Shown: piece after piece, positions 7,801-7,828 of the stretch
Layout of the letters: every line of letters begins with the position of its first letter
Numbering within the stretch: position 1 is the first letter of the stretch
Source of the DNA: a virus
IMG/VR virus record: IMGVR_UViG_3300005066_000231
Coordinates: 1-7,902 of that record
Reading direction: 5' to 3' (one strand)
Length of the DNA: 7,902 nucleotides
Translations under genes and position numbers: made by a program
Notes under the pieces: generated by a model
What the model was told of the DNA's origin: nothing
Seen by the model: the letters and a program-made list of their open reading frames with translations, nothing else
Database searches by the model: none

Positions 7801-7828
7801 TATTAACATATTATACATTATACGAAAT
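7801..7828 (-). other. dif-like XerC/XerD site A, canonical 11-6-11 architecture (candidate duplex attP)
   Basis: The minus strand reads ATTTCGTATAA-TGTATA-ATATGTTAATA. The XerC arm is identical to sites B and C. The 6-bp spacer is identical to the E. coli dif spacer TGTATA. The XerD arm matches TTATGTTAATT at 9/11. It lies in the 131-nt gap between the SSB gene and the structural operon. Confidence 0.75.
7810..7817 (-). promoter_or_regulatory. Putative extended -10 element TGTATAAT embedded in dif-like site A, facing the structural operon
   Basis: The minus strand 7817..7810 reads TGTATAAT (TGnTATAAT), about 37 nt upstream of the ATG at 7773. A second TATAAT is formed by the XerC arm (CGTATAAT). 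I found no convincing -35. dif sites are intrinsically -10-like, so this is tentative. Confidence 0.3.

Follow-up and report, generated by a model that had tools for sequence, protein, structure and literature searches.

A duplex dif-like site accompanies a folded CTX-type attachment site in an Acinetobacter inovirus that appears to exploit the host Xer recombinases in two ways

Integration of the CTX type is regarded as irreversible; in cholera strains, other elements are required to undo it. One end of the gonococcal genetic island is a canonical dif, the other a dif-like site whose spacer matches but whose arm is imperfect; the island is stably maintained yet excisable at low frequency, and its stabilization has been proposed to result from FtsK stripping the weak complex. 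In Vibrio cholerae, the duplex sites of neighbouring VGJ/TLC elements excise the otherwise irreversible CTX prophage, and a complete or hybrid genome is set free when a VGJ/TLC-type site recombines with the dif that follows a CTX-type prophage (PMC4246890). Acinetobacter dif modules, each framed by XerC/D sites, are shuffled among replicons by recombination that requires matching spacers; an ATAA-spacer-TTAT motif determines binding and cutting by XerC and XerD (PMC11705084).

Here we analysed a window of 7,902 nt (positions 1 to 7,902 of IMG/VR record IMGVR_UViG_3300005066_000231), which represents a circular Acinetobacter inovirus with a true unit length of 7,811 nt. Three sites, referred to as A, B and C, share an 11-mer that resembles a XerC arm. 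The features of the window are as follows.

1–91: terminal overlap of 91 nt, identical to 7812–7902
18–2486, minus strand: replication/regulation module, from the C spacer to the A flank; holds B
420–94, minus strand: 108-aa ORF of the replication/regulation module
1912–431, minus strand: Rep pII, replication/regulation module
2034–2237, plus strand: divergent 67-aa ORF inside the replication/regulation module
2352–2508, minus strand: CTX-type attP(+) forked hairpin, C paired with the complement of B
2363–2391, plus strand: site B, partner of C; ATTTCGTATAA, 7-nt spacer TGCAGAT, XerD-like arm TGATGTTAAAT (10/11)
2466–2497, minus strand: site C, top strand of the folded attP(+); ATTTCGTATAA, 10-nt spacer TATATCGAGA, XerD-like arm TTATGTTACTT (9/11)
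2498–7800, minus strand: structural/assembly module, from A to the C flank, including a Zot-N-like ORF and small ORFs
4607–3417, minus strand: Zot/pI, structural/assembly module
4921–4604, minus strand: pVI, structural/assembly module
6365–4890, minus strand: pIII-like protein, structural/assembly module
6672–6409, minus strand: coat protein, structural/assembly module
7787–7799, minus strand: downstream IHF-consensus box AATCAATAACTTA, starting 1 nt past the XerD-like arm of A
7801–7828, minus strand: site A, duplex dif-like site with 11-6-11 layout, conserved in > 119 viral contigs
7811–7801, minus strand: degenerate XerD arm of A, ATATGTTAATA, 8/11 to TTATGTTAAAT
7817–7812, minus strand: spacer of A, TGTATA, as in Acinetobacter chromosomal dif
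7828–7818, minus strand: XerC arm of A, the exact 11-mer ATTTCGTATAA
7838–7850, minus strand: upstream IHF-consensus box AATCAAAGTCTTA (WATCAANNNNTTR), separated from the XerC arm of A by 9 nt

Scans of all ORFs against Pfam and PHROG recovered Rep, Zot, coat, pVI and pIII-like proteins only. In agreement with the first-pass annotation of this DNA, which had reported that no integrase is encoded, the same scans detected no integrase, transposase or XafT-like protein in any ORF; a XafT-like ORF (DUF3653) was not found even at E ≤ 5, and the 108-aa ORF had no match in a PDB sequence search. The host had been predicted to be Acinetobacter from the arm sequence, and the DNA and protein relatives of the window phage are indeed all Acinetobacter phages, plasmids or chromosomes. 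A megablast search against phages gave no match. Relatives occupy the chromosomal dif in A. baumannii and A. higginsii and, in pmZS, a pdif, and the window phage itself was found at a plasmid pdif in a metagenome contig (L136). It thus shows two properties of an IMEX (integrative mobile element exploiting Xer): no recombinase is encoded, and integration is at dif or dif-like sites with hybrid junctions that regenerate dif.

The identical 11-mer noticed at three loci was recovered exactly, ATTTCGTATAA occurring at 2363–2373 (plus strand), 2487–2497 (minus strand) and 7818–7828 (minus strand); the fourth copy, at 7–17 (minus strand), is the last of these seen again within the 91-nt terminal overlap, through which part of A is repeated at 1–17. 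Its recurrence is, as suggested, beyond chance, with 0.02 exact matches expected from shuffles and none of 200 shuffles reaching four. A XerD-like arm follows each time, after 6 nt in A, 7 nt in B and 10 nt in C. The minus strand of A reads ATTTCGTATAA TGTATA ATATGTTAATA, which bears out the proposed 11-6-11 layout. Among the three dif-like loci, A alone is of the duplex type with a 6-nt spacer; B and C make up the two halves of a folded pair. As had been pointed out for enterobacterial dif, TGTATA is the spacer of E. coli dif. It is likewise the spacer of A. baylyi ADP1 dif and of all chromosomal dif sites compiled for Acinetobacter in PMC10132070. A indeed mimics Acinetobacter dif. The description of A as fully canonical had to be corrected: its XerD arm departs from TTATGTTAAAT at positions 1, 10 and 11, and the change at position 1 turns the conserved TTAT motif into ATAT and breaks ATAA-spacer-TTAT.

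A is flanked by two matches to an IHF consensus, which has only four unique matches in the whole window. Among 84 unique A contexts, the upstream box was exact in 56 and within one mismatch in 71; the downstream box was exact in 79 and within one mismatch in all 84 (at an offset of −1 to +1), varying mostly at the NNNN positions. Judged by their sequence, both boxes may bind IHF. The single-stranded fold of the A region was no better than that of shuffles (z −0.9), which ruled out a local hairpin (TATACAT...ATGTATA). A and B of the window share a 15-nt perfect complement, but long-range A–B pairing was also rejected: the two arms are unlike in relatives, e.g. TGTTCGTATAA vs AATTCGCATAA, and the pairing is therefore not conserved. 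Having neither a single-stranded partner nor a fold, A must act as a duplex.

B and C behave as a CTX-type attP. Their inverted arms lie 111 nt apart (the class has about 90–150 nt), complementarity over the 18-nt arms is 94%, and in the (+) strand C pairs with the complement of B. The predicted DNA fold of attP(+) has an energy of −29.5 kcal/mol (z −7.5), matched by none of 200 shuffles, and its loop contains a terminator-like stem. The pair is conserved in relatives. Integration crossovers fall at C, specifically at the boundary between the XerC arm and the spacer, giving a natural attL of host arm plus C spacer beside which the other half-site, B, remains intact (8/8).

The core of A, TTCGYATAATGTATAATATGT, is present in > 119 IMG/VR contigs, all of them inovirus-like. 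Gene and site order is constant in these relatives: C(+), B(−), Rep, A(+) and structural genes. The folded C/B pair lies 2.0–2.6 kb upstream of A, A marks the border between the replication module and the structural one, and A and C point the same way in all genomes examined. When the eight central nucleotides were left free, 96 of 99 sites still carried TGTATA followed by AT. The spacer and the first base of the XerD arm thus hold despite wide divergence of the flanks, the proteins and the outer bases of the XerC arm; where the Rep of a relative is only 30–40% identical, few stretches still align as DNA, and the A and B regions belong to them. A adjoins two unrelated Rep families, Phage_CRI and Rep_trans, between which no similarity is detectable; this suggests that a host factor, rather than Rep, reads the site. 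The coexistence of a folded pair of the CTX type and a distinct duplex-type site, which had been put forward as an unusual dual arrangement, is real and conserved in > 100 relatives. A lack of A in related phages had been named as evidence against the original claim, and in this lineage A is retained; it is absent from related Acinetobacter inoviruses with another type of att (L002, L004/5, L009 and L142–L150). A scan of metagenomes for the pattern returned one uninformative contig, and the same scan of viral contigs returned one further relative.

Inspection of attL and attR, as recommended with the original claim, revealed hybrid A/dif junctions. All eight left prophage ends with visible host flank consisted of the host XerC arm and the C spacer followed by B, from which we conclude that integration is CTX-type. 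The right ends looked different: 10 of 14 comprised the A flank, the A arm, TGTATA, a canonical TTATGTTAAAT and host flank (L007, L011, L030, L094, L130, L131, L134, L135, L136 and L154). In two of these (L007 and L131) the replication module alone is present at dif as a Rep-only element. Junctions of A flank, arm and C spacer (L019, L022, L031, L073, L079 twice, and L132) are later CTX-type insertions into A/dif sites. The remaining four right ends retain the structural module beside dif, and the reaction of A with dif is consequently neither efficient nor obligatory. Two of the four (L100 and L126) have the spacer TGTATA, which broke a tentative rule that right ends with C flank survive only where the spacer differs from TGTATA. 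The first-pass annotation had further proposed that A could support VGJ/TLC-type duplex integration. A junction of left host flank, host arm, TGTATA and ATATGT occurred at 0/8 left ends, a small sample in which all ends were CTX-type, so that there is no support for the duplex form entering an empty dif. A as a target of the incoming hairpin was rejected too, as the combination of C flank, C arm, TGTATA and ATATGT was absent in the A sites inspected.

The window phage itself is bounded by A-derived hybrid sites in L136, where it is present at 99.9% identity. On the left, a foreign Rep flank is followed by GTTGCGTATAA TGTATA ATATGTTAATA; on the right, the A flank of the window is followed by ATTTCGTATAA TGTATA TTATGTTAAAT and plasmid backbone. 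Recombining these two sites yields exactly the circle of the window. Its structural module corresponds to positions 584–5939 of the contig (99.9% identity), between the A-type left junction and site C. Two CTX-type integrations plus one deletion would also produce the L136 arrangement. Phage M02 (GenBank) has A at position 111; a junction of A flank and dif follows at 5927. Copies bounded by A were seen only beside a resident Rep module (L136, L011 and M02), and prophage arrays at plasmid pdif sites were seen twice (L003 and L136). The last bases of contigs L140 and L008 are exactly ...ATTTCGTATAATGTATA, as would be expected at an assembly branch point.

A is also where genomes exchange their parts. 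Among 97 A contexts, 55 pairs were alike on the left only and 109 on the right only, identity falling from 94–99% to random within the 28-mer; L016, for instance, resembles L049 to the left of A and L106 to the right. A 'class 2' upstream flank was considered as host DNA and turned out to be a Rep_trans-type phage module, present in circular and tandem contigs. Had it been host DNA, it would have proved A-mediated integration.

We consider it probable (roughly 0.6) that XerC and XerD genuinely use A as a duplex recombination site, which would make it the second device for exploiting Xer within one inovirus. Since natural junctions record recombination of A with dif, the phage appears to exploit the host Xer recombinases in two ways, and the best reading of A is a duplex Xer site in active use, at which recombination with dif brings about excision or deletion and modules are reassorted. 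C and B of the packaged (+) strand would fold into the forked hairpin, and, as happens in CTX phage, host XerC would carry out a single-strand exchange between C and dif or pdif. The products would be attL, with the host XerC arm and C spacer beside an intact B, and a regenerated dif at the right end; this outcome is what the prophage ends display, with XerC as the probable catalyst. To the integrated phage A would contribute a good XerC arm, the spacer of chromosomal dif and a XerD arm whose conserved T-to-A defect is expected to weaken it, placed between the two modules in direct orientation with C and the right-end dif and flanked by two IHF-consensus boxes. In double-stranded DNA, A would then recombine with the right-end dif or another A, probably through XerCD, and the outcome would be set by the array. 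A lone or last copy would lose its structural module, leaving an RS1-like Rep-only element and a fully canonical dif. With a further copy or a Rep-only element upstream, a complete circular phage genome would be excised, or reversibly re-inserted; between different co-resident phages, replication and structural modules would be reassorted at A. CTX-type integration of Rep-only satellite circles could also give rise to A/dif right ends; the first such circle still requires a crossover at A. The benefit to the phage is not obvious, because recombination of A with dif in a lone prophage is self-destructive; it may consist in an exit route that CTX-type integration lacks. More tentatively, and with rather less than even confidence, we suggest two modes, in which the folded single-stranded site serves irreversible entry and duplex A serves regulated, possibly FtsK-independent exit, re-entry beside Rep-only elements and module exchange.

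Other functions could be imagined for a conserved dif-like sequence at this position. A might be a multimer-resolution site of the plasmid-like replicative form, with dif recombination as a side reaction. In the known examples, cer and psi, PepA/ArgR or ArcA bind some 180 bp of accessory sequence next to the core, and recombination is intramolecular only; the boxes noted around A are the two 13-nt IHF-consensus boxes. Relatives are kept in isolates as 5.6–7 kb circular 'plasmids' that include the A region, A is a duplex site whose conserved flanking motifs could be viewed as accessory sequences, and some Acinetobacter plasmid Xer sites are FtsK-independent and may resolve dimers (PMC11705084). 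We nevertheless regard this role as unlikely, given that rolling-circle replicons reach unit length through Rep and that the spacer of A is specifically chromosomal whereas plasmid sites use others; the many A/dif hybrids and module breakpoints, though compatible with it, are not predicted. Similarly doubtful is a site devoid of selected function, an evolutionary scar at which any recombination would be incidental: a VGJ-like structural phage and a CTX-type Rep-only element, neighbours in a tandem at dif, would have been copied out together as a single genome, and the hybrid att between them would persist as a fossil. For CTX, tandem IMEXs are known to generate hybrid genomes (PMC4246890), A sits exactly at the border of two reassorting modules, and some Acinetobacter inoviruses dispense with it. 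A neutral site, however, should decay or be converted to canonical dif by its own recombination; here the spacer and the non-canonical first base of the XerD arm are kept in 96/99 despite divergent surroundings, and consensus boxes are conserved on both flanks.

Control of transcription of the structural operon, with the likeness to dif letting XerCD serve as a sensor of occupancy or as a repressor, seems improbable. A and its IHF-consensus boxes do lie just upstream of the first structural ORF, A precedes the structural genes in every genome, its right flank leads in most relatives to an AGG-type ribosome site and a start codon 20–30 nt downstream, and the T-to-A change yields TGTATAAT, the XerC arm plus T forming a second, overlapping TATAAT. 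Against a sigma-70 promoter, neither TATAAT has an acceptable −35 at the right spacing, the promoter scan did no better than on shuffles and the only minus-strand consensus match lies elsewhere, leaving it a minor rival. A promoter would also need no 11-nt XerC arm that tracks host dif, and the host-dif hybrid junctions and exact breakpoints would be left unexplained. Breakpoints at A, a tandem GTATAAT GTATAAT that could be an iteron, and the production of CTX phage from arrays by such copying might point to a (+)-strand origin or terminator of rolling-circle replication, with units copied from A to A. This last alternative is very unlikely indeed, and we rejected A as an origin on finding the identical core beside two unrelated Rep families. 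A GTCCAC/GTGGAC hairpin at 2271–2299 is the better candidate: it travels with the Rep type and is 100% conserved in A. parvus prophages that have the same Rep and lack A. Nor can replication produce junctions with a host XerD arm.

If A acts as a duplex Xer site, a lineage with its own exit site would represent a new solution to the irreversibility of CTX-type integration, and A would account for the arrays of prophages flanked by Rep modules that were reported, unexplained, in A. baumannii. As the breakpoints map to 28 bp, the site offers a precise and testable mechanism for mosaicism in Acinetobacter inoviruses. It also ties phage biology to the Xer/pdif gene shuffling that spreads carbapenem resistance in Acinetobacter, a link on which the two arrays at pdif on large plasmids bear. 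The conserved TTAT-to-ATAT arm and its flanking boxes are natural variants for the study of Xer tuning, and with the three-site signature the ends of prophages in Acinetobacter genomes can be placed to the nucleotide. Host DNA is included in the M02 record that GenBank lists as a 'complete genome'.

Phage M02 and the Af filamentous prophages of A. baumannii belong to the same phage group; the folded pair, site A and the logic of the junctions are not described for Af prophages (Viruses 2024, PMC11209303), and our literature searches found no description of the three-site layout. The phage shares with CTX phage/RS1 of V. cholerae the lack of an integrase, the inverted dif-like sites in a forked (+)-strand hairpin, a crossover on the XerC side of one site, the regenerated right-end dif, tandem arrays and Rep-only elements beside full prophages. 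Unlike the window phage, CTX has no extra duplex dif-like site within its genome and relies for excision on neighbouring VGJ/TLC elements or on rolling-circle copying from arrays. Its Rep-only element is a distinct satellite with a gene of its own (rstC), whereas those observed here carry the A flank and appear to be derived through A.

Like the attP of VGJ and TLC, A is a single duplex site of the 28–29-bp kind with XerC and XerD arms in 11-6-11 layout and no single-stranded partner; it differs in belonging to the same genome as a folded attP rather than to a separate element, and in the IHF-consensus boxes on its flanks. The earlier suggestion of integration of the VGJ/TLC type is not supported for either. 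VGJ is defined by a spacer that shares only its XerC-side bases with dif, and all 6 nt of the A spacer are identical to chromosomal dif. A degenerate XerD arm (8/11) recalls TLC, whose activation factor, XafT, has no counterpart among the encoded proteins. Prophages with A joined to an empty dif, as the VGJ type would give, were seen in 0/8 of a small sample. The gonococcal genetic island is likewise bounded by a canonical dif and an imperfect dif-like site, but is a genomic island rather than a phage and has no single-stranded integration route. With the pdif/dif modules of Acinetobacter the phage shares the host Xer system and the arm consensus. Those modules have inverted bounding sites with diverse spacers; here A and C are direct repeats in all genomes examined, C is a hairpin half-site and A has the chromosomal spacer. 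If the two-mode reading is correct, the phage would be a self-contained version of the CTX/VGJ/TLC three-phage interplay of V. cholerae and the phage counterpart of the Acinetobacter dif-module system.

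The XerC arm ATTTCGTATAA occurs exactly at 2363-2373 (plus strand), 2487-2497 (minus) and 7818-7828 (minus), against 0.02 exact matches expected from shuffles; a further match at 7-17 is the copy of the site A arm within the terminal overlap. The sites were read on the phage coding strand, and their XerD-like arms were scored against TTATGTTAAAT:

Site A (7828-7801, minus): XerC arm ATTTCGTATAA; spacer TGTATA, 6 nt; XerD-like arm ATATGTTAATA, 8/11
Site B (one half of the folded pair): XerC arm ATTTCGTATAA; spacer TGCAGAT, 7 nt; XerD-like arm TGATGTTAAAT, 10/11
Site C (the other half): XerC arm ATTTCGTATAA; spacer TATATCGAGA, 10 nt; XerD-like arm TTATGTTACTT, 9/11

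These data bear out the first-pass annotation in that the 11-nt arm is shared beyond chance and is followed each time by a XerD-like arm. The site A spacer is, as also claimed, the enterobacterial one (identical in E. coli dif); the Acinetobacter chromosomal dif sites tabulated by Harmer, Pong and Hall (PMC10132070) all have it too, as does dif of A. baylyi ADP1 (PMC2731167), whereas the spacers of plasmid pdif sites differ from it (PMC10132070). To call site A fully canonical was an overstatement, because its XerD arm starts with ATAT instead of TTAT; in A. baumannii, binding and cutting by XerC/XerD are reportedly determined by the motif ATAA-spacer-TTAT (PMC11705084).

Self-comparison showed that 1-91 is duplicated at 7812-7902, and the window therefore represents a circular unit of 7,811 nt. 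It is an inovirus with nearly all genes on the minus strand:

1912-431, minus: Rep (Phage_CRI + G2P_X_C)
420-94, minus: 108-aa ORF
7678-7259, minus: Zot-N-like P-loop ORF, 139 aa, with similarity to the N-terminal P-loop part of Zot only; immediately downstream of site A
6672-6409, minus: major coat protein
6365-4890, minus: pIII-like protein
4921-4604, minus: pVI/DUF2523
4607-3417, minus: full-length Zot/pI, distinct from the Zot-N-like ORF
2034-2237, plus: divergent 67-aa ORF, the single plus-strand gene

A 106-aa hydrophobic ORF (6967-7287, minus) overlaps the Zot-N-like ORF, and two tiny Zn-ribbon-like ORFs of 32 and 35 aa lie at 7675-7773 and 6863-6970 (both minus). Several AAATCACAAAT-like direct repeats at 1921-2005, between the Rep start and the 67-aa ORF, are probably operators or iterons. 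Even at permissive thresholds, no window ORF matched an integrase, a transposase or a Xer activation factor, in line with the earlier statement that no integrase is encoded. The predicted Acinetobacter host also held, as all DNA relatives of the window come from this genus.

As DNA, the 157-nt stretch that spans C and B (as its complement) has a folding energy of -29.5 kcal/mol (z -7.5), with full pairing of the XerC arms, the spacer as a bubble and partial pairing of the XerD arms; B/C is a folded site with the properties of the CTX class. No significant DNA fold was obtained for the site A region (z -0.9), and site A can thus work only as duplex DNA. Within the loop of the C/B hairpin, a strong stem at 2409-2440 (CTATGTT...AACATAG), with an A9 run on one side and a T-rich run on the other, resembles a bidirectional terminator; it would serve the 67-aa ORF and the structural operon, which converge here.

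Site A is conserved among relatives. A related prophage on the A. lwoffii plasmid pmZS contains C and B as well as an A site in its interior (ATTTCGTATAA TGTATA ATATGTAAATA) and terminates at a true pdif past zot. In a 7.4-kb contig with a 41% identical Rep, the three sites are all present and have the arm ATTTCGCATAA. The few stretches of either relative that still align with the window as DNA include the A and B regions. A pattern scan found the core TTCGYATAATGTATAATATGT in more than 119 IMG/VR contigs. The matches listed are all inovirus-like (Zot 26-55% identical) and have the common order C(+), B(-), replication genes, A(+), structural genes and back to C, with B(-) about 100-160 nt downstream of C(+) and A(+) 2.0-2.6 kb after C. 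In this lineage, related phages do not lack site A, a lack that had been named as grounds for rejecting the proposal, and the suggested coexistence of a folded CTX-type pair with a separate duplex-type site is common to the relatives listed. With the XerC-arm core and right flank fixed, and the spacer and first two XerD-arm bases left free, 96/99 sites read TGTATA+AT, so spacer and non-canonical A are conserved independently of how sites were found; the outer three XerC-arm bases vary (ATT, TGT, ACT, GCT and others). Two Rep families without detectable similarity to each other, Phage_CRI and Rep_trans, adjoin site A, which argues that a host factor, not Rep, reads it. Site A is not universal: it is absent from Acinetobacter inoviruses with another att type, ATGTCGCATAA CGTAATT TTATGTTAAAT plus inverted partner (L002, L004/L005, L142-L150), among which the window's Zot and pVI have their closest relatives (93-96%). 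Prophages of this second type lie in tandem in A. parvus, where the junction pattern looks like XerD-side exchange.

Two direct matches to the IHF consensus, WATCAANNNNTTR, bracket site A. The left box (AATCAAAGTCTTA) ends 9 nt before the XerC arm, and the right box (AATCAATAACTTA) begins 1 nt past the XerD-like arm; counting both strands, just four unique matches exist in the whole window. Of 84 unique A contexts, 79 have an exact right box and none departs from it by more than one mismatch, 56 have an exact left box, and variation falls on the N positions of the consensus. We infer from these matches that IHF may bind on both sides of site A.

Ends of prophage arrays were classified by the published A. 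baumannii dif and its flanks, actatataat TGTTCG[T/C]ATAA tgtata TTATGTTAAAT aaa[a/g]gatttg (PMC10132070); the sample with host flanks is small (8 left and 14 right ends), and IMG/VR prophage borders are arbitrary. Every left end (7/7 in A. baumannii, and L007 of A. higginsii) reads host flank, host XerC arm, C spacer and then intact B, which is the CTX-type product. None of the eight had host arm + TGTATA + ATATGT; the proposed VGJ/TLC-type duplex integration via A into an empty dif is thus not seen among them. At the right, 10/14 ends (L007, L011, L030, L094, L130, L131, L134, L135, L136 and M02/L154) read A-flank, A arm, TGTATA, canonical TTATGTTAAAT and host flank, so that arrays usually end in a Rep-only module and the right junction is an A x dif crossover; the other four (L003, L034, L100, L126) read C-flank, C arm, spacer and host XerD arm. 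L131 and L007 are complete 2.7-kb Rep-only elements with host flanks on both sides, one contig (L048 + L134) runs from attL (the left prophage junction) through two full copies and a Rep-only module to dif, and L079 has three Rep modules in series. A-derived difs serve again as targets: at least seven junctions consist of A-flank, A arm and C spacer. The reciprocal of insertion into A (C-flank + C arm + TGTATA + ATATGT) was absent among the A sites inspected, which suggests that site A is a poorer target than canonical dif.

Unusual spacers were noted in L034 (5817, C-flank AGTTCGCATAA TAGAGA TTATGTTAAAT, followed by the right flank of A. baumannii), in L151 (3122, ATTTCGTATAA TATAGA TTATGTAAACA in the A position) and in the pdif of plasmid pXBB1-8 (L153, about 8985-9012, ATTTCGTATAA TATAGA TTATGTTAAAT); exchange of spacers with plasmid sites, or crossovers on the XerD side, may have given rise to them. 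On pmZS (L003), ISAba32 copies at 7960-9294 and 17771-19105 adjoin the prophage attL (9393) and a pdif (17672), in each case on the XerC side at a distance of 5 bp, which fits the published target preference of IS1202-family elements and indicates that the phage attL is still recognised as a dif-like target. The Acinetobacter phage M02 record (L154, GenBank OQ693633) starts in the end of a replication module, 110 nt before A, and runs past the A-flank/dif junction into chromosomal DNA of A. baumannii for about 300 nt; the deposited "complete circular genome" is thus a prophage excerpt, not a phage circle. L006 (JAFAFR010000101.1), labelled a Bacteroidetes MAG, holds an Acinetobacter-type inovirus with all three Xer sites and is probably mis-binned.

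The window phage itself was found integrated, at 99.9%, in a 9,555-bp metagenome contig, L136:

Start: 3' end of a different Rep gene and a 94-aa ORF
Left junction: cccaacataatcaaaggtttaatatacgta GTTGCGTATAA TGTATA ATATGTTAATA
Interior: structural module, then C, B, 67-aa ORF, Rep, 108-aa ORF
Right junction: the window's own A-flank, then ATTTCGTATAA TGTATA TTATGTTAAAT
Right of junction: ccgatacacc... backbone

This backbone has a 99.5% match in at least 68 Acinetobacter plasmids, and pXBB1-8 has a pdif at the position equivalent to the right junction. Recombination between the two A-type sites of L136 would yield exactly the window circle, and insertion of that circle would create L136. Alternatively, two CTX-type integrations could have been followed by a deletion, but this history likewise requires a crossover at A. 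One contig of a second metagenome (L140) and one isolate contig (L008) break off exactly after ...ATTTCGTATAATGTATA, as assemblers do when two continuations coexist. Outside the phage, about 0.6 kb from the att junction, the L136 backbone (9057-9554) encodes a 285-aa tyrosine recombinase, 98% identical homologues of which are common on large Acinetobacter plasmids.

Comparison of 97 A contexts, 400 nt each side, revealed 55 pairs highly similar on the left up to the site and unrelated on the right, 109 similar only on the right, and 81 similar on both sides. Identity drops from 94-99% to random within the 28-mer. For example, L016 has its left side in common with L049 and its right side with L106, and L040, L056 and L081 have 99% identical right sides behind three unrelated left sides. 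Efficient homologous recombination needs longer identity than these 17-19 bp; the breakpoints are explained most economically by site-specific exchange at A.

Four other readings of site A were considered. Neither the flanking boxes nor the retention of a non-canonical base in 96/99 sites fits well with a neutral scar of a past fusion. A promoter or operator would leave the junctions unexplained, and a -35 element is absent at A. Against a replication origin stands the association of the core with unrelated Rep families, and the Rep-linked GTCCAC/GTGGAC hairpin at 2271-2299 (29-mer ttaagtccactccagagaacgtggacttt) is a better candidate: it is 100% identical in L004/L005, A. parvus prophages with the window's Rep type (77% nt identity) that lack site A and carry other att sites, and is a putative (+)-strand origin travelling with Rep. 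Site A could also be a cer-like multimer-resolution site of a plasmid-like RF, consistent with the small circular "plasmids" that carry it; this role might coexist with another.

All conclusions rest on sequence comparison. In the mechanism we propose, entry is CTX-like at C, as the junctions show, with XerC catalysis presumed from the V. cholerae paradigm (PMC4246890). Site A, which has the same orientation as the regenerated dif and other A copies, would act as a duplex Xer site and recombine with them. In a terminal copy, A x dif or A x A recombination would delete the structural module, leaving an RS1-like Rep-only element and a fully canonical dif. With a Rep module upstream, recombination at A would excise or re-insert a complete genome (the geometry of L136, L011 and M02), and between different phages in one array it would reassort modules. 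The ATAT arm and flanking boxes plausibly tune the reaction to low frequency, perhaps with FtsK independence. That the reaction is not fast is shown by four arrays in which A and a dif still enclose the structural module; in two of these the spacers are identical.

In its testable features, the window phage is an IMEX. The dif-like site of the gonococcal island is similar in logic to site A. The partial spacer homology of the VGJ class does not apply to site A, nor does the window phage encode the activation factor that marks the TLC class. In V. cholerae, VGJ or TLC elements adjoining CTX supply this kind of recombination in trans (PMC4246890), whereas site A is built into the phage. The one paper found that deals with these phages (PMC11209303) noted prophages flanked by replication modules and guessed at XerCD use, without describing the Xer sites, and in the literature searched the three-site layout of folded B/C plus duplex A did not appear. 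Like the Acinetobacter dif modules, site A delimits exchangeable modules, but the sites are in direct orientation here and inverted there.
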